DNA of 64,000 nucleotides, taken from IMG/VR virus record IMGVR_UViG_3300031420_000399. One strand, 5' to 3'. Position numbers and translations under genes: made by a program. Positions 25,177 to 62,282 of this stretch are shown in pieces (within the stretch, counting starts at the first letter, position 1; the number at the start of each line of letters is the position of its first letter). The notes beneath the pieces are model-generated. The model saw only the letters and a program-made list of their open reading frames with translations, ran no database searches and was not told the origin of the DNA. This stretch comes from a virus (lineage: Duplodnaviria > Heunggongvirae > Uroviricota > Caudoviricetes).

Positions 25177-25875
25177 ATGGCTCAGAAGCGCATCCACCTC
25201 TCTCCCCAGGGACCATCCGATTGTGGAGCGACTGTCGGCAACTGTCCATATGCTGAAGATGGCCATTTTCTCAGCCTTTCAGGAGCTGAGAATGCCTTCG
25301 AGGAGAAGATGGGCGGATCGCTACCAGCTCCAGCGAAGCGAAGCATCGGAGACCTATTCCGAAGGCGTCAGCCTGAAGTCACTCAACAGCCCAGGGAACT
25401 TCCACCTCTTCGACTCCATCTCGACTTCGACACGGTAGCGGTTCGGGACGGGGATCTTAGCAACCCGAGGGTTCGCCACTACCTTGTCAACGGTCTTTGC
25501 GGCGATCTCGCCATGGCAATCCAGGAGAAGCAGGGCGGTCGAGTGTTCTTTGCCGTGGATGAGCAGCTTCCACCTGGTGTTACCCTTGAGTCAGCTGCCG
25601 AGAGGGGCGAGCTCGGAGACCATGTGGCCCACGCCTTCGTAGAGAGCCGGGAACATCCAGGCATGTTCCTCGACGCCTATGGAGTCAAGAGTGCGGAGGA
25701 CATTGAGGGGTACTACGGCACGAGCGTCCGAGAGGTCTCTCCTGAGATCCTTTCCCACTATGGTAGTGGACCTCGAGGCACTCGTGGCACCCACGATCTC
25801 TCGAACTTTGCAGATGCGGCCATCGCTCTGGATCGAGAGGGTCGATTCTACGATTACGAGGGAGAGGGCTATTGA
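25177..25875 (+). CDS. hypothetical protein, tandem paralog A (232 aa)
   Basis: SD AAAGGAAG; shares HLSPQGPSDCGATVGNCPY and LCGDLAMAI blocks with the next gene. Confidence 0.6.
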   Translation: MAQKRIHLSPQGPSDCGATVGNCPYAEDGHFLSLSGAENAFEEKMGGSLPAPAKRSIGDLFRRRQPEVTQQPRELPPLRLHLDFDTVAVRDGDLSNPRVRHYLVNGLCGDLAMAIQEKQGGRVFFAVDEQLPPGVTLESAAERGELGDHVAHAFVESREHPGMFLDAYGVKSAEDIEGYYGTSVREVSPEILSHYGSGPRGTRGTHDLSNFADAAIALDREGRFYDYEGEGY

Positions 25876-26537
25876 TGGCTGCGGGACAGCTCCACCTTAG
25901 TCCCGCGGGTCCAGCACCCTGCGGTGTCACCACCGGTAACTGTCCCTACGAGGATGGCGGCCACTACGATGATGTTGCACAGGCAGAGGCCGCCTACGCG
26001 GAGAGTCAGGGAGGCAGTCTGCCTGTAGCGATCCAGCGGAAGATCACTCTGGGTAGCAATCTGGGGAGCTTCGAGGTTACGGATGGAGATCTCAGCGATC
26101 CCGCAGCCCGGGCCGCTCTCAGCACCGGACTTTGCGGTGATCTTGCGCTCGCAGTTCATAGGAAGACTCGTGGCGCTCCCTACTTTCTCTCCTACAGCTT
26201 CGACAGCCCAGAGGCTCTGGCAGAGGCCTTCGCCCGTGAGCCCAATGTGATCTTCACCTCGGCCCATGTGGTCCTCGAATCACCCACCCGGTCTGGCTCG
26301 TTCCTTGACGGTAACGGTCAGCAGGACCTAGAGTCCCTGGAGGAGGTCTACGAGGACGCTGTTCCCGTCAGAGGCACTCCAGAGATGCTTCAGTACTTTG
26401 CTGACTCCGGTTCAGCTGATCGGCTCGGCAACTTCGCGGACAGCGCGCTTGAGCTTGACCGCAGTGGTGATCGATACGACTCCGAGCTCGACGGACTTAG
26501 CTGGGACGACGAGGACGAAGATGAGGATTCCTTCTAG
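25872..26537 (+). CDS. hypothetical protein, tandem paralog B (221 aa)
   Basis: ATGA overlap with paralog A; blocks HLSPAGPAPCGVTTGNCPY and LCGDLALAV. Confidence 0.6.
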   Translation: MMAAGQLHLSPAGPAPCGVTTGNCPYEDGGHYDDVAQAEAAYAESQGGSLPVAIQRKITLGSNLGSFEVTDGDLSDPAARAALSTGLCGDLALAVHRKTRGAPYFLSYSFDSPEALAEAFAREPNVIFTSAHVVLESPTRSGSFLDGNGQQDLESLEEVYEDAVPVRGTPEMLQYFADSGSADRLGNFADSALELDRSGDRYDSELDGLSWDDEDEDEDSF

Positions 26538-28859: not shown

Positions 28860-28939
28860 GCCATAGAGCGGACTTGCAGTGCGCTCGTAGACGATAGGTT
28901 CTCAGAGGACCGACTGAAAGCTTCAATCGAGGAGAGACC

Positions 28940-56781: not shown

Positions 56782-57903
56782 TTGAATTTGGAGCTCCTCC
56801 CCTTGGCAGCAAAGAACCTCTCAGTCTACAGCGAGCTCCTGGGCCGCGTAAAGACCGAAGGTCTCCTCACGAAGACACCTTCCTTCTACATCCGATCCTT
56901 CGTCATCATCACTCTCCTCTCCCTGGCAACATGGGCAGGCATCATCCTCCTGGGACTCACTCTCTCGGGGCCGATGGCCCTTCTCATTCTCCCGCTGATC
57001 GTCTTCCAGGGGATACTCACAGCTCAGTACGCATTCATTGCCCACGAGCTCGCTCACAACCAGGTCTTCGAGAGCAACCGGGCCAACACCTGGGTCGGGA
57101 TGGTCATGGCCAATCTCTTCGCGGGGCTCTCCTACGGTTTCTGGCTGCAGAAGCACAATCGCCATCACGGCAAGCCCAACATGATCGACGGCGATCCTGA
57201 CATCAAGCTCAGAGTGCTGGCCTTCTCTACCGAGCAGAAATTTGAGAAGCCTTCGGCTGAGCGCATGCTGACTCGCAATCAGGGCTGGCTTTTCCCGATC
57301 CTCGTGTTCCTGACGAGCTTCGATCTCCTCCTTGACTCCTTCAAGAGCCTCGGCCGAAAGACCGGCCGTGGGGCCGAGCACCGCTTCCTCGAGGGAGCCA
57401 TGCTCGTGGTTCGACTTCTCACTCCCATCGCAGTCTACCTGATCTTCCTGCCCCTCTGGGTCGCACCGATCGCCTGGCTCATCTACATGCTGTCCTTCGG
57501 ATTCTTCCTCGGCACCGCCTTCGCTGTGAATCACATCGGCATGCCTCTGGTCGAGAAGAGCTCTCGGATCGGCTTCCTAGAGCGTCAGATCCTGACTTCC
57601 CGGAACATCACTCCGAGCCCGCTGAAAGATGTGCTCATGGGTGGGCTCAACTACCAGATCGAGCACCACCTCTTCCCATCGATGTCCCGGCCCCAGCTCG
57701 CTCGAGTCAGGCCGATGGTCAAGGAGTTCTGCCGGGAGAAGGGCATCGCCTACCGGGAGATGGATCTTTTCAAGGGCTTCGGTGAGGTCATCGGCTACCT
57801 CAACAGCATCGGCCTCTCTACCAGGCTCGACCCCTTTGTCTGCCCTCTGGTTGCTGAGTTCCGCCAGGGTGGGCTACCCGCGAAGGTGCTCGTTCGCGCC
57901 TGA
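56782..57903 (+). CDS. membrane fatty-acid desaturase family protein (373 aa)
   Basis: three His boxes HELAH, HNRHHGK, QIEHHLFP; multiple TM helices; TTG start. Confidence 0.75.
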   Translation: MNLELLPLAAKNLSVYSELLGRVKTEGLLTKTPSFYIRSFVIITLLSLATWAGIILLGLTLSGPMALLILPLIVFQGILTAQYAFIAHELAHNQVFESNRANTWVGMVMANLFAGLSYGFWLQKHNRHHGKPNMIDGDPDIKLRVLAFSTEQKFEKPSAERMLTRNQGWLFPILVFLTSFDLLLDSFKSLGRKTGRGAEHRFLEGAMLVVRLLTPIAVYLIFLPLWVAPIAWLIYMLSFGFFLGTAFAVNHIGMPLVEKSSRIGFLERQILTSRNITPSPLKDVLMGGLNYQIEHHLFPSMSRPQLARVRPMVKEFCREKGIAYREMDLFKGFGEVIGYLNSIGLSTRLDPFVCPLVAEFRQGGLPAKVLVRA

Positions 57904-57906
57904 GAA

Positions 57907-57935
57907 TTGACAGGGCTGGAATCAGTGGTTAGCAT
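57907..57935 (+). promoter_or_regulatory. promoter: TTGACA-17-TAGCAT upstream of the MazG-like gene
   Basis: perfect -35. Confidence 0.6.
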
Positions 57936-57982
57936 TGTGCTCCAACCACTCATCGCCACACCCATCGAGGAAAATCGAACCC

Positions 57983-58315
57983 ATGGCAGCAAAGAAGAAG
58001 GGCTTCCCACTGCTCAAGCTGCGTAGCAGGAAGCTCAACGGGTATCTGCACCGCTATGTGGATCTCCGTGGAGTTCGCTGGGGTCGCTACGCGAAGGTCA
58101 GCAAGCTCAAGGAAGAGTCCCGAGAGCTCATCGAGGCAGTAGCCGACTACGAGGCAGACCCCACTCCCCAGAAGCTAGAGCACCTGAAGGAAGAGGCCGC
58201 TGATGTGCTCTTCTGCGTGCTCGGAGTTTCCGAGAAGTACGGCTTCGATCTCCACGATGCGGTTGAGCACAAGATCTCCAAGGACACTGGCAGGAACACC
58301 GCCAAGAGCCACTGA
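57983..58315 (+). CDS. MazG-like nucleotide pyrophosphohydrolase (110 aa)
   Basis: SD GAGGAAAA; ESRELIEAV...EEAADVLFCVLGVSEKYGFDL core; TTGACA/TAGCAT promoter 57907-57935. Confidence 0.65.
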   Translation: MAAKKKGFPLLKLRSRKLNGYLHRYVDLRGVRWGRYAKVSKLKEESRELIEAVADYEADPTPQKLEHLKEEAADVLFCVLGVSEKYGFDLHDAVEHKISKDTGRNTAKSH

Positions 58316-58317
58316 GA

Positions 58318-58499
58318 GGCAGTAGCTGGCAGCCTAAGGTAGGCGCAGTGGCCCATCGAATGTTGACTCATCCCTAGGATTCTCCATCCCGAGCAGCCCA
58401 GTCGCAGAGTGCCTTGTTCAGCTGTCGCCTGAGGCGCTCGAAGGCTGTGGATTGGTCATCGAACCGAAGCAATCTAATCCTCCCTTAGGAGCCCAGCTA
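58318..58499 (+). repeat. long-range 13-nt inverted repeat GGCAGTAGCTGGG (58318-58330) / CCCAGCTACTGCC (58487-58499) bracketing about 155 nt of intergenic DNA
   Basis: exact reverse complements; interior contains smaller palindromes. Confidence 0.45.
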
Positions 58500-58561
58500 C
58501 TGCCTCTCAGGCACCGCTACCGTTCGATAGTGTGCTCCAATAGTCACAGCATCGAAGGGAA

Positions 58562-59125
58562 TTGCCAGTGGGTAAGAGAGTGGCTCAGCAGAAGCCAGGA
58601 GAGTCTCGCTTCATAGAGCTCAAGCGGATCGCTCCAAGGGCATTGACGATCTTCGGACTTCTGCTCCTTCTCATCGGGCTGATCGCTGTGCCCGCTGACC
58701 TGAAGACCTACAACCGGGACAATGAGCTTCGAGCCACTGGAGCAACGGCTACTGCAACCGTCGAGTCCGTGGACAGGGTCCACCACTCCGGACGCCGCTC
58801 TAGCTGGAACGAGTACATCCCTCTGCTTTCGGCTAGCATCGACGGGACAGAGCATGTCTTCAGAATGAGTGATTACTCCTCCAAGAGCTTCGGTACCTTT
58901 GCGCCGGGTCAGAAGCTCACTCTCATGTATGAGCAAGGAAACCCCTACCACCTGCCGGGGATCAAGAGCGATGGGGCCAGATCCGATCTTACTGGCAATC
59001 TCGTCAGGAACTCGATCGTGGGATCCATCGGCGCGCTCATGGTTCTCATCGGAGCCCCTATCTTGATCGTCAGATTCGCCAGACGACGCCGGGCGAAGCA
59101 GGCTAGTAGGGCCGATCTCGCCTGA
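58562..59125 (+). CDS. DUF3592-like two-TM membrane protein (about 187 aa)
   Basis: TM helix, beta domain (TATVESVDRVHHSGRR...DGTEHVF...APGQKLTLMYEQGNPYH), second TM helix; start could be TTG 58562 or GTG 58568. Confidence 0.55.
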   Translation: MPVGKRVAQQKPGESRFIELKRIAPRALTIFGLLLLLIGLIAVPADLKTYNRDNELRATGATATATVESVDRVHHSGRRSSWNEYIPLLSASIDGTEHVFRMSDYSSKSFGTFAPGQKLTLMYEQGNPYHLPGIKSDGARSDLTGNLVRNSIVGSIGALMVLIGAPILIVRFARRRRAKQASRADLA

Positions 59126-59245
59126 TTTTAGATTTTTCTCGGGATCCATCAGGTAGCACCGATCTGGGCCGATAGGTATATAGGAGGGCGCAAAAGCGTC
59201 CAGATCGTCGGTATAGCAACATCGAACACATCGAAATCGAACCAA

Positions 59246-60610
59246 ATGTGGCATGACCACAGCACGATTCGGTACGACGAACTCGAACCCGCCATGCCAA
59301 CGGTACCTGAATACGGAGACACCATGGAACAGAACGCCATCAGCTACGCTGCAGAGGTCGCCCAGCAGCCCCTTGAAGCTAGGCCTTCAGTGGAAAACGC
59401 CAAGCTGTTCAAGCTGATCTACAACGGCAGCCTGGATGAAGACCTCCTTCAGCGCGCAGTTGAGGATCGACCGATCTCTCAGAAGGCCAAGGACCAGTGG
59501 CACTGCTCTGGGATTCGGAAGCTCCTCAACGGAAGCCTCAACATGGGATCCAAGAACGATCTCGAAAAGGCTACTGCAATCTCAAGGAAGATCTCCCGGT
59601 TTATGATCGAGCAGCCCGAGAGCTTTGCTGCTCTCCCCGCCGCTGACCAGGAGGAGATCCGTAGGCTCCACATCAACACTGGCTCTAGGGAGTGGGTCAA
59701 CGAAGAGGAGCAGCTCCTTGCCCTGAAGATCGAGTCGAGCTCTGAGCTCCTGAGCGAGTTCGGCATGAACTTCAGCTCTACTCCCGCCCAAGAGCTCAAC
59801 CAGAATCTGACCGGCACCGAGATGGTGAACTTCAGCTGGGACAGCTGCGGCCACAGAGACTACCGGGCTGCCTACGCAATCAACACCGCCATCAACAAGA
59901 AGAAGTCGCCCTACTGTAGGGAGTGCTACACGCTCGACAACTCGCTGATCACCTGGTATCAGCTCAACGAAGACTTCCTCCTGAGCTCTCAGGTTGACAT
60001 CTCCCAGGTCTCCTCCGTGGACCTGCTAGCATCCGCCTACAGCAAGACGAAGATCAACATCGGCTATGGCTGCGGCCACAGGGAAAACACTACCTTCCAG
60101 TCCCTCAAGGACAAGGTGAAGCGCGCTCAGGAGCTCGGCCAGGAGACGATCAGCTGCAACGCCTGCAAGGTTCCCGACGGAACATTTGAGGTCGGCATCA
60201 GGATGGCCATTCAGCTCGCAACTGCCTTCGTTCCTGGAGTCACCATCGAGAAGCAGGTTGAGCTCGATGGGCTGAAGGGCAAGCCCTACGACATGCTCAT
60301 CAGGCTAGAGTCTGGTAAGCTCTACTTCATCGAGGTAGATGGAGGACTCCACTACAAGCCGTTCAACAGACTCGGCCAAGATGAATTTGACCGTAAGATC
60401 GAAGTCGATCGGGAGAAGACAGAAGCGATTCTAGCCCTGGGCCACGGTCTCATTCGGATCGACGAGCGCAACCACCGCGGCGAAGTCACTGAAGAGCTTG
60501 CAGCTGTGCTCAGTGCAGCGCTCCGAGGTACTCTGGGAAACTACACAGTGATCGGCGAAGAGTGCCCCGGAGCTCAGCTCGTCTCCGATGAGCGCAAGGG
60601 TTGGGCCTAG
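59246..60610 (+). CDS. Zn-ribbon protein with C-terminal DUF559/Vsr-like (PD-(D/E)XK) nuclease domain
   Basis: two CxxC...CxxC clusters; C-terminal MLIRLESGKLYFIEVDGGLHY...DRKIEVDREKTEAILALGHGLIRI fits the DUF559 pattern; start uncertain (ATG 59246, 59294 or 59324). Confidence 0.55.
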   Translation: MWHDHSTIRYDELEPAMPTVPEYGDTMEQNAISYAAEVAQQPLEARPSVENAKLFKLIYNGSLDEDLLQRAVEDRPISQKAKDQWHCSGIRKLLNGSLNMGSKNDLEKATAISRKISRFMIEQPESFAALPAADQEEIRRLHINTGSREWVNEEEQLLALKIESSSELLSEFGMNFSSTPAQELNQNLTGTEMVNFSWDSCGHRDYRAAYAINTAINKKKSPYCRECYTLDNSLITWYQLNEDFLLSSQVDISQVSSVDLLASAYSKTKINIGYGCGHRENTTFQSLKDKVKRAQELGQETISCNACKVPDGTFEVGIRMAIQLATAFVPGVTIEKQVELDGLKGKPYDMLIRLESGKLYFIEVDGGLHYKPFNRLGQDEFDRKIEVDREKTEAILALGHGLIRIDERNHRGEVTEELAAVLSAALRGTLGNYTVIGEECPGAQLVSDERKGWA

Positions 60611-61026
60611 AGGTCCTCGACCCACTCGATGAGCTTGTCTGCGATTTCGGCTACCTCGTCATCGTCGCTGAGCCCAATGCCCTGATCGCCGACGAGCTCA
60701 TTCCAGTAGTCTTCGTCGGTGGGATCGTAGAAGGCCACGGTTGCTTCGCTCTGGATGAGGAAGGGCCGCCAGCGAGCGAGGAACTGCTTCCGGGTCTGAA
60801 GCCCGTTGGCGTCGAGGATCTGACCGTCCTCGAGCTCAACTGCCATGTGGCACCACCAGTCGGTGTCCCGGCTCTCGACTGCGGCAATGAGCCTGCCAGT
60901 ACCTCGCAGGTGGAGCTCCCTGGCGAGCTTCCAGCAGTCGGAGGAGGTGAAGGTGTCGACCTCGTCCGTGGTGCAGGGCGAGACCTCGAGGAGGAGGTCC
61001 TGGTCGGTGGTGGTGATCCTACGCAT
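60607..61026 (-). CDS. hypothetical protein (139 aa), only minus-strand gene
   Basis: leaderless ATG (plus 61024-61026) 7 nt after a minus-strand tgTACAGT; stop codons overlap the convergent gene at CTAG. Confidence 0.5.
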   Translation of the reverse strand: MRRITTTDQDLLLEVSPCTTDEVDTFTSSDCWKLARELHLRGTGRLIAAVESRDTDWWCHMAVELEDGQILDANGLQTRKQFLARWRPFLIQSEATVAFYDPTDEDYWNELVGDQGIGLSDDDEVAEIADKLIEWVEDL

Positions 61027-61033
61027 GGGAGGA

Positions 61034-61062
61034 ACTGTACACACGGGAGAGCGAATCCGCAA
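61034..61062 (-). promoter_or_regulatory. promoter (minus strand): TTGCGG-17-tgTACAGT, leaderless minus-strand ATG at 61024-61026
   Basis: reverse complement of plus CCGCAA (61057-61062) and ACTGTACA (61034-61041); 7 nt gap. Confidence 0.55.
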
Positions 61063-61078
61063 CTCTTTCTTCAGCCCG

Positions 61079-61107
61079 TTGCGCAGCTGTAGATAGCCGT
61101 GTATGGT
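61079..61107 (+). promoter_or_regulatory. promoter: TTGCGC-17-tgTATGGT, leaderless ATG 61115 (divergent pair, + side)
   Basis: 7 nt gap. Confidence 0.6.
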
Positions 61108-61114
61108 GAGACCT

Positions 61115-61687
61115 ATGTATGATCCCACCAATGAGCAGGCACTGCTGAAGCTCGAGTCCGACATCAACGCCATCTACCAGGTCATCAAGAGCGGTCACGA
61201 CAGCGTGAACGAGGCCTGGGAGACCGCCCTGGCCACAGTTCGCGTGCTCGCAGCTCGCTGGAACCACATCCCTACCCGCAAGGCACTGAACTTCATGGAG
61301 ACCCTAGAGGATCTCATGGAGGAAGAGGAGCTCGATCGGCCCACCGCTCTCCAGAAGCTCGGGGAGGTCCGTGGCGAGCAGTTCGAGCTCCAGGGTGATC
61401 CCACCCTGAAGTTCACCACCATCGAGCACACCGCCAACGGGTCGGTGATCCGGAAGGATATCCTCAGCGCCAGCAAGCCCATCGTTCTGCGCATCGAGGG
61501 CAACAAGGACAGGGAGAAGCTCTACGAGGTCACCATCCGTAGGCAGACCAACCAGCACGGCTACCCAAGCAGCTTCTTCTTGAGCCCGGGACGAAAGCTG
61601 GAGGTCTCCGGCATGGAGAACGGCGAGACCATGCTCATCAACATCGATCCGGAGAGCTACGAGCTCGTCATCGAGCGCACTCGATAG
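61115..61687 (+). CDS. hypothetical protein (190 aa)
   Basis: leaderless ATG 7 nt after tgTATGGT (61102-61107); the track start 61103 lies inside the -10. Confidence 0.55.
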   Translation: MYDPTNEQALLKLESDINAIYQVIKSGHDSVNEAWETALATVRVLAARWNHIPTRKALNFMETLEDLMEEEELDRPTALQKLGEVRGEQFELQGDPTLKFTTIEHTANGSVIRKDILSASKPIVLRIEGNKDREKLYEVTIRRQTNQHGYPSSFFLSPGRKLEVSGMENGETMLINIDPESYELVIERTR

Positions 61688-61721
61688 GGTGAACTCAGTA
61701 CACTCACAGAAGGAACTGTAG

Positions 61722-62282
61722 ATGGAAGAGCAGACAGTACGAGATCGCACCCGGAGTGCGCTCATCGATGGCCTTCGGGCCACCAACCTCGTGGTCGTCC
61801 TGGGAGAGAGCCACATTCCCGGACAGCTCAAGGTCGATGAGCTCATGAGCTACCTCGAGAATGCCGGGGTGCTGGCGGCTGAAGAAGCACCGGAACCTGA
61901 AGGCACCGAGGTCGCCCTGGAGCTCAAGAGGACCTCCTACGCCATGCCTGAGCAGTATGAAGCATTCCTCGATGGCCGGCAGGTCGGTTACCTCCGGCTT
62001 CGCCACGGAACCTTTCGAGCCCACTACCCGGACCACATGGCCCCTCCTGTCTACATCGCTGAGACTATGGGCTCCGCATCCTTCGATGGCCGAGAGCGAG
62101 AGCAGCAGATCCGAGCAGCTCTCGTCGAGATCCTAAAGGCCGATGGGCTGGAGAATCCGATCCCGGGCTTCGACCTCCCCGAGCGTCACGATGAAGAGAT
62201 GATCGAGGAAGTCCGAGTTCTTATGGAGGATACCAGCTCGACTCTCCGAACCCGGCGCTCGAGGACCGGCCGGCACAGCTAA
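61722..62282 (+). CDS. hypothetical protein (186 aa)
   Basis: SD AGAAGGAA. Confidence 0.55.
   Translation: MEEQTVRDRTRSALIDGLRATNLVVVLGESHIPGQLKVDELMSYLENAGVLAAEEAPEPEGTEVALELKRTSYAMPEQYEAFLDGRQVGYLRLRHGTFRAHYPDHMAPPVYIAETMGSASFDGREREQQIRAALVEILKADGLENPIPGFDLPERHDEEMIEEVRVLMEDTSSTLRTRRSRTGRHS

Follow-up and report, generated by a model that had tools for sequence, protein, structure and literature searches.

We describe a nuclease gene, and a small gene that faces it, in a stretch of 64,000 nucleotides from IMG/VR virus record IMGVR_UViG_3300031420_000399 (Caudoviricetes); the whole stretch is referred to here as the window. The window has about 60% GC, its coding lies nearly all on the + strand, and the locus studied spans 57.9-61.7 kb. 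On balance, we favor the reading that the + gene is one occupant of a homing-endonuclease-like nuclease exchange slot, which lies beside an unrelated, conserved and early gene on the opposite strand. The left side of such a slot would be fixed by a conserved leader, a ribosome-binding site and a start codon, and its right side by a stop codon overlapping the stop of the conserved reversed gene. The body of the open reading frame (ORF) alone would be exchanged, its occupant being a Vsr/EDxHD-type protein of class 1 or class 2, a longer variant or an HNH-motif protein. The reversed gene would be transcribed independently and would not be the partner of the nuclease. An earlier note on this DNA had suggested either a toxin-immunity (nuclease-inhibitor) pair or an inserted selfish-nuclease cassette.

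Relatives of the locus were recovered with the nuclease and the small protein themselves and by a metagenome scan anchored on the neighboring MazG gene. Twelve independent related loci possess the same synteny: a desaturase gene, MazG, zero to two DUF3592 genes as mapped by tblastn, the slot and the reversed gene. The gene facing the small gene is intact in all 12, encodes a protein of about 425-510 amino acids (aa) and belongs to one of at least three allele classes. Vsr-like class 1, the type of the window, is also present in L001, L002, L003 (=L008) and L005. Vsr-like class 2, found in L009 and L004, is 26-38% identical to class 1, and L016 carries a longer Vsr-like variant of 509 aa. An unrelated protein with an HNH motif (QWDHLIP...GN.CPIC..CN; Pfam HNH, E 0.003-0.013) occupies the slot in L006 (=L007), L010, L011 and L012.

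Comparison of near-identical genomes locates the limits of this exchange. L002 and L009 are 98.5% identical over 3.1 kb that run from upstream through roughly the first 20 nt of the ORF, the nuclease bodies being unrelated; their small genes are 98.3% identical in nucleotide sequence, and the flanks of the slot are 98-100% identical on both sides. When the window was aligned to L007 by blastn, similarity ended at 59349 and resumed at 60605, so that it was lost only across 59350-60604. N-terminal residues shared between some alleles number at most about 10-20. The selfish-nuclease cassette proposed earlier is retained in part: the ORF body (about 59350-60604) is exchangeable, and the reversed gene lies outside it.

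The small protein remained 81-99% identical regardless of the nuclease class facing its gene. L002 and L009 share 99% identity in the small protein versus 32% in the nuclease, and the corresponding values for L001 and L010 are 92% and 22%. Each of the main classes (Vsr-like 1, Vsr-like 2 and HNH) is represented in members of the close group as well as in distant genomes, and allele class cuts across genome relatedness as gauged by the small-protein sequence. In the same genome pairs, synonymous divergence (dS) was 1.10-1.60 for the nuclease versus 0.51-0.84 for the small gene, indicating that the nucleases have older and separate histories. All nuclease alleles are under purifying selection, with ratios of nonsynonymous to synonymous divergence (dN/dS) of 0.07-0.38.

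An alignment of seven loci with Vsr-type or HNH-type nucleases revealed long invariant blocks in the nuclease leader. The leader, its ribosome-binding site (GGAGA, 5 nt ahead of ATG 59324) and the ATG itself are conserved across all nuclease classes. The nuclease most likely starts at this ATG and is not leaderless, and the earlier start at 59246, that of the longest ORF, is corrected to it. Two invariant leader segments, CGTYGGTA and TGCCAACGG (within 59206-59305), are predicted to pair as a long-range helix of 9 bp, which would lie some 18 nt ahead of the ribosome-binding site. Although these segments are conserved with every nuclease class, the helix contains zero compensatory changes; a structured regulatory leader was dropped for this reason and is kept only as a lead. 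The window has 19 copies of the motif CGATAG on the + strand (for example at 28892, 36088, 41418, 45914, 47159, 56759, 58525, 59170, 61682 and 62893) and 6 on the − strand. Of the + copies, about 13 are intergenic and lie 25-150 nt upstream of genes bearing ribosome-binding sites, the nuclease included. CGATAG may represent a second promoter or regulatory class, separate from a leaderless TTGCGN-17-TAnnnT class to which we return below.

The C-terminal domain of the nuclease possesses a Vsr/I-Bth0305I/DUF559 fold, with the Vsr mismatch endonuclease as the best fold match. It is preceded by a large N-terminal region, whose domain is helical, and by two zinc-type motifs; the Vsr-like core itself spans about 60176-60523. 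Seven homologues with 48-100% identity, all metagenomic, were aligned. Both zinc-type motifs are invariant among them and have the form C-x-H...C-x-x-C (C175/H177/C198/C201 at about 59846-59926 and C250/H252/C278/C281 at about 60071-60166), which replaces the two CxxC...CxxC clusters described earlier. The core E289...Y-D323...IE337-V-D339-GG-x-H343-Y-K345...D362 is invariant as well, in seven homologues of 48-76% identity, and an equivalent catalytic motif is present in class 2 alleles and in the L016 variant. Its E...D...x...H...D order agrees with the EDxHD motif of I-Bth0305I, and a mapping onto E170/D196/N208/H213/D222 of that enzyme (PMC3239194) is proposed, equivalence of residues being judged by order and spacing only. 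The earlier assignment of a DUF559/Vsr-like PD-(D/E)XK domain is borne out by the fold match together with the invariant acidic and His residues, and the alignment that the note had recommended finds the candidate catalytic D/E/K residues unchanged. Among profile searches, residues 214-415 of the 454-aa ORF match PHROG 559 ('HNH endonuclease', 8.8e-12) and PHROG 9084 ('homing endonuclease', 0.0042), and the nuclease also matches PHROG 4538 (unknown function, 1.6e-06). It has no match in NCBIfam or PADLOC; in the latter, the HNH-type allele gives weak HNH-motif matches only.

A homing-like exchange could operate as follows: 1) in a co-infection, the nuclease would cut a related genome whose allele differs, at the slot or close to it; 2) repair by recombination, templated on the nuclease's own genome, would copy its allele in; and 3) a clean allele replacement between near-identical flanks would result, several old allele classes continuing to circulate. 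Several results weigh against this reading. An empty slot or a decayed allele was seen in none of the 12 loci, a small sample that was partly ascertained via the genes themselves; a homing gene that is purely selfish would be expected to be missing from some genomes and to show degeneration. No copies of the nuclease classes were found outside the slot locus, and there is no sign of spread to other sites or lineages. Neighboring genes are also mosaic, and general modular recombination could therefore explain the swaps without any nuclease activity. At the level of sequence, the nuclease gave no Pfam Vsr or DUF559 match at E<=0.1 and no PDB sequence match by phmmer or by profile, and it contains no detected NUMOD, helix-turn-helix (HTH) or other homing-endonuclease DNA-binding Pfam modules.

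On its right, the slot meets the reversed gene. The two stops overlap on CTAG, as the earlier note had reported, with the TAG of the + ORF at 60608-60610 and the CTA (TAG on the minus strand) of the − ORF at 60607-60609. This 4-nt overlap is retained in L001, L002 (as CTAA), L003/L008, L005, L007, L009 and L010, and is replaced by gaps of 1-12 nt between the two genes in L004, L012 and L016. A conserved terminator or hairpin at the junction was considered and dropped, the consensus structure reaching only -8.7 kcal/mol with little covariation, and terminator-like sites in the region were no commoner than in shuffles in a generic terminator scan. Because the stops overlap, leave no room for a terminator and are accompanied by no conserved one, the two transcripts must overlap, and the nuclease may be subject to antisense or collision effects.

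The reversed gene is the only convincing minus-strand gene of the window. Its substitutions in five relatives fall mostly at codon position 3 (for example 19/10/48), its dN/dS is 0.07-0.23 among close relatives, and its GC content at third codon positions (GC3) is 0.84. By codon-usage log-odds trained on long + genes, 60607-61173(-) is the top minus-strand stretch (0.266 versus 0.01 for the + overlap) and, across the whole window, the sole minus-strand open stretch that outscores the + stretch overlapping it. Gene calls made independently on related contigs agree with it. The earlier claim that 60607-61026 is the window's only minus-strand gene is upheld by substitution pattern, dN/dS and log-odds, and the ORF is conserved under purifying selection. 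Other candidates were rejected. An overlapping + ORF at 60601-61092, chosen by one gene caller in L002, has most substitutions at its first codon position. Two further minus-strand candidates at 25.3-26.3 kb, hinted at by GC3, are shadows of real + genes, since the overlapping + ORFs are mutual paralogues and distant relatives of the small protein.

By their sequence, the small gene and the next + gene have leaderless promoters of sigma-70/SigA type. In the small gene, TTGCGG (61062-61057) is followed by a 17-nt spacer, TACAGT (61039-61034), 7 nt and ATG 61026. In the next gene, TTGCGC (61079-61084) is followed by a 17-nt spacer, TATGGT (61102-61107), 7 nt and ATG 61115, a start that replaces the one given earlier at 61103. 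The two promoters stand back to back within an 88-bp divergent spacer, with 16 nt between their -35 hexamers. We scanned the window with a loose pattern (TTGNNN-16/18-TANNNT-5/9-start), its expectation being derived from dinucleotide shuffles, and with a strict form (TTG[CA]NN, a spacer ending in TG, and 5-7 nt to ATG). When an ORF of 60 or more codons has to follow, the loose pattern gives 18 sites on the + strand and a single one on the − strand; regardless of ORF, it has 19 matches on the + strand versus 0.77 expected. The strict form has nine matches on the + strand and one on the − strand, exactly at the small gene, versus 0 in shuffles. The -35 and -10 hexamers of the small gene are retained in 11 loci as the spacer sequence drifts. 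Such a pattern marks a functional promoter, and it confirms the earlier proposal that the minus gene has its own promoter, back to back with that of the next + gene. Many genes of the window carry GGAG-type ribosome-binding sites, meaning that not every gene is leaderless. The host-type leaderless promoter makes it probable that the small gene is early.

The product of the small gene has no match in Pfam, PHROG, NCBIfam or PADLOC and no PDB sequence match. A profile search of 1.84 billion representatives found 299 relatives, mostly of 115-160 aa. Among 59 diverse family members of 20-60% identity, only C31, L34, H60, D72 and G75 are invariant. In an AlphaFold 2 (AF2) model with a predicted local distance difference test (pLDDT) score of 86, C31 lies at the N-terminus of a helix and H60 and D72 on two successive strands, and the predicted secondary structure comprises a helix at 31-40 and strands at 54-64 and 70-72. 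Matches to papain/transglutaminase-like folds are weak; a Foldseek search against viral models returned uncharacterized phage proteins and NlpC/P60. PF24591 (Phage_YunG-like) matches nine of the 59 members weakly (best E 5.7e-4), the window protein being below threshold, and no published work on YunG-like proteins or PF24591 was found in the literature. With moderate confidence, we regard the small protein as a putative thiol enzyme and a general phage effector, not a partner of the nuclease; it is probably a peptidase, an amidase or a transglutaminase-like protein modifier.

The wider family appears in several contexts. Its members are fused to a Fic domain or lie within a multidomain protein of 1061 aa, and tandem duplicates are present in Actinobacteria (Agromyces and Cellulosimicrobium). 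The small-protein alignment had no match among GTDB genomes; a subfamily alignment found a single GTDB locus, L015 of Cellulosimicrobium, beside an Lsr2-like gene, and this neighbor suggests a mobile-element effector context. Among Actinobacteria-like sequences, the Cys-His-Asp domain is tandemly duplicated in P0026 and in L015 (4476-5441) and embedded in P0104 (1061 aa), all with 'HPR...G.F' linker motifs. Within the window, the + genes 25177-25875 and 25872-26537 are tandem mutual paralogues sharing the N-terminal motif HLSPxGPxxCGxTxGNCPY, and their codon-usage scores are unusually low for + genes. Both are distant paralogues of the 139-aa protein (hhalign E 5.7e-5 and 2.1e-4, the Cys, His and Asp of the triad lining up), and the window therefore contains three members of the Cys-His-Asp family.

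We ask whether these results fit other explanations better. The main rival of a homing-like slot is a non-mobile competitive nuclease, a weapon for exclusion, for attack on competitors or for degradation of host DNA, which balancing selection would keep diverse and which ordinary modular recombination, with no self-copying, would move. It is favored by a slot that is never empty, by alleles that are all intact (dN/dS 0.07-0.38) and by allele classes that are old and common to distant genomes; the MazG-to-small-gene region is generally variable, with zero to two DUF3592 copies, the next gene is mosaic too, and expression signals are fixed and common to all alleles. We nevertheless hold it to be rather unlikely, because the exchange boundaries are those of the nuclease ORF itself between near-identical flanks, because true homing genes of T4 relatives show this alternation of HNH and Vsr-like proteins at a single position (PMC2988022, PMC3239194), and because PADLOC defense families have no match except weak HNH-motif ones. 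A housekeeping Vsr-like mismatch endonuclease for repair or replication of the phage's own DNA is scarcely credible by comparison. The best fold match and a gene always present and intact are in its favor, but such an enzyme would not swap with an unrelated HNH protein between flanks that are 98-100% identical. In addition, the nuclease has no sequence-level match to Vsr models, and a large N-terminal part and the zinc-type pair precede its Vsr-like core.

The remaining alternatives concern the reversed gene. If the two genes formed a pair of toxin and immunity gene, or of nuclease and inhibitor, the 139-aa protein would neutralize the nuclease by binding it. Their tight juxtaposition with overlapping stops, a pairing conserved in every locus examined and the acidic C-terminus of the small protein, like that of many nuclease inhibitors, agree with this idea. 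However, the small protein does not co-vary with the nuclease, being 81-99% identical across loci with unrelated (Vsr-like and HNH) nucleases; its invariant Cys-His-Asp triad is typical of enzymes; its family is found in many settings that lack such nucleases, including the Fic fusion and the two distant copies at 25177-26537; and the genes are convergent, differ in type of upstream signal and are not co-transcribed. This first suggestion of the earlier note is accordingly abandoned as very improbable. A cis-antisense control module, in which transcription of the reversed gene would run antisense through whichever nuclease is installed, seems doubtful to us, and it could add to the homing-like reading. 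The overlapping stops leave no terminator space, the junction has neither a conserved terminator nor an excess of terminator-like sites over shuffles, orientation and overlap are retained with all allele classes, the upstream signals of the two genes are of different types, and phage homing nucleases are tightly regulated in T4 (PMC2988022). Against this, the small ORF is under strong purifying selection as a protein, so its orientation need not be its purpose, and three loci have small gaps, not overlaps. A broader variant of the homing-like slot, which we put forward as speculation with little expectation that it holds, is a never-empty 'nuclease socket'. Its fixed expression frame would take any nuclease body, convergent transcription would provide sequence-independent antisense or collision control, and ancient classes would be held by frequency-dependent competition of co-infecting phages, giving a balanced polymorphism, not an invasion-decay cycle.

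Table 1. Positions of the features of the exchange slot and its neighbors in the window.
Feature	Position	Strand	Remarks
MazG-like pyrophosphohydrolase gene	57983-58315	+	Pfam MazG E=3.1e-9; found in every related locus; conserved anchor on the left of the variable region
Long inverted repeat	58312-58510 (arms 58312-58343, 58479-58510)		brackets the MazG-DUF3592 spacer
DUF3592-like membrane protein gene	58568-59125	+	weak Pfam DUF3592, E=0.0049; annotated as DUF3592 in relatives
Conserved leader of the nuclease slot	59164-59323	+	CGATAG at 59170, invariant block CCATGCCAACGG, GGAGA ribosome-binding site
Nuclease gene, 428 aa	59324-60610	+	helical N-terminal region, two zinc-type motifs, C-terminal Vsr/DUF559/EDxHD-like core
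Exchangeable cassette (nuclease ORF body)	~59350-60604	+	no DNA similarity to HNH-type relatives; both flanks align
CTAG common to both convergent stops	60607-60610		4-nt overlap retained in most relatives, HNH-type loci included
Reversed gene, 139 aa	60607-61026	-	putative papain/transglutaminase-like thiol enzyme with distant YunG-like kinship; invariant Cys31-His60-Asp72
Leaderless sigma-70/SigA-like promoter of the small gene (predicted)	61024-61062	-	TTGCGG-17-TACAGT-7-ATG
Leaderless promoter of the next + gene (predicted)	61079-61117	+	TTGCGC-17-TATGGT-7-ATG 61115
Next + gene, 190 aa, function unknown	61115-61687	+	right-hand neighbor; mosaic module among relatives

The surroundings of the slot are variable in their own right. 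The inverted repeat upstream, first noted as a 13-nt perfect one, is real and larger than that: its arms of 32 nt are 88% complementary and contain an 18-nt perfect core. Its fold reaches -93.9 kcal/mol versus -73.2 +/- 4.7 in shuffled sequences (z = -4.4), and the inverted-repeat pattern has 2 matches versus 0.15 expected. The interior of the MazG-DUF3592 spacer (58316-58567) is not conserved in relatives. This spacer is a second variable spot; the window has the inverted repeat there, whereas an extra DUF3592 paralogue is found in L001 (8482-9054), L003/L008 (8500-8994 in L008) and L010 (395-937); the DUF3592 gene is missing altogether in the more distant L004, L005, L012 and L016. A 185-aa gene is called at the DUF3592 position on a contig carrying an identical 139-aa small protein. 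The inverted repeat belongs to this upstream variable region; the convergent pair does not include it. Immediately right of the two divergent promoters, L009 4820-5720 and its counterpart in L002 (the equivalent of 61115-61687 in the window) share 70-87% nucleotide identity and form an exchanged module.

A fatty-acid desaturase gene (56782-57903; Pfam E 2.3e-40) adjoins the MazG-like gene; the two are unusual auxiliary metabolic genes in an actinophage-like genome. Across the lineage, protein identity by tblastn is 80-96% for the desaturase and 64-89% for the MazG-like protein. Cultured phage genomes had no match to the region by megablast or to the nuclease and small protein by tblastn, IMG/VR viral contigs none to the downstream protein or the small-protein alignment, and Rfam none at E<=1 across 57800-61800. 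A 714-aa protein of the window has counterparts in Mycobacterium phage WXIN (45% identity, the best link at the protein level) and Rhodococcus phage Weasels2 (29% identity), links that are consistent with an actinobacterial host and with leaderless SigA-like promoters. Relatives of the locus lie on very long contigs, namely L008 on Ga0308169_10000040 (346 kb) and L012 on Ga0308157_10000029 (674 kb). The lineage may comprise large, uncultured, deep-branching, actinophage-like genomes, and both a jumbo phage and another kind of element are possible.

If the homing-like reading is true, allele replacement driven by nucleases, so far described in T4 and ICP1, also operates in a deep-branching uncultured lineage with contigs of up to 346 and 674 kb. 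It would be an unusually clean case, with ORF-for-ORF exchange, near-identical flanks and several old classes that are all intact, and it is relevant to the question of whether the 'homing' nucleases of phages are nothing but selfish or are kept as inter-phage weapons. The uncharacterized Cys-His-Asp family, with about 300 clusters, three copies in the window and fusions to Fic and giant proteins, offers candidate phage effectors. For annotation, a lone reversed gene beside a nuclease is not to be called an immunity gene without a test of co-variation.

Among known systems, polymorphic toxin/immunity and toxin-antitoxin modules resemble the locus in that a variable nuclease adjoins a small gene. 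They differ in that the small gene here is convergent, not downstream in an operon, is enzyme-like and does not co-vary, and the slot alleles have no long conserved delivery domain such as that of polymorphic toxins. The arrangement of the small protein's Cys at a helix N-terminus, His in a strand and Asp in the next strand is shared with papain/transglutaminase-like enzymes (protein-glutaminase, Ntaq1, NlpC/P60 and SseI) and with PF24591 Phage_YunG-like, from which the window protein differs in lacking a Pfam match. As for the nuclease, I-Bth0305I of the EDxHD family (PDB 3R3P) likewise carries its Vsr-like catalytic domain at the C-terminus after a non-catalytic N-terminal region, and E289, D323, D339, H343 and D362 stand in EDxHD order (PMC3239194), an equivalence proposed from order and spacing. 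In contrast to I-Bth0305I, the window nuclease, which has no detectable sequence similarity to it, is free-standing and not intron-encoded, and it has the C-x-H...C-x-x-C pair and a helical N-terminus instead of NUMOD/HTH modules. Compared with Vsr (PDB 1CW0) and DUF559 'endonuclease-like' proteins (PDB 3HRL), it is much larger and its alleles swap.

Recombination boundaries in ICP1 and other phages are marked by nuclease genes (PMC10448857). The 'HEG (homing endonuclease gene) islands' of these phages are alike in placing a nuclease gene at breakpoints of identity between related phages; unlike them, the nuclease body here is itself the exchanged unit and not the bracket of a larger mobilized island. 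The closest parallel is found in T4-type phages. Passages of PMC2988022 describe the HNH gene mobE and the 'unique' endonuclease gene hef as both targeting nrdB, and hef and segH as taking the place of mobE and mobC, and Hef-type enzymes are members of the Vsr-like EDxHD family (PMC3239194). As at the mobE/hef and segH/mobC positions, unrelated HNH and Vsr-like families alternate at one position here, a stand-alone nuclease ORF lies between conserved genes, and the flanks are recombination mosaics. Unlike the T4 slots, the slot here swaps ORF for ORF within a fixed leader, ribosome-binding site and start, up to a stop shared with the convergent gene; no empty or decayed allele is seen in its 12 loci, and homing would be ascribed to it by analogy. 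With these likenesses and differences, an analogue of the T4 mobE/hef exchange appears to be the best reading of the slot.

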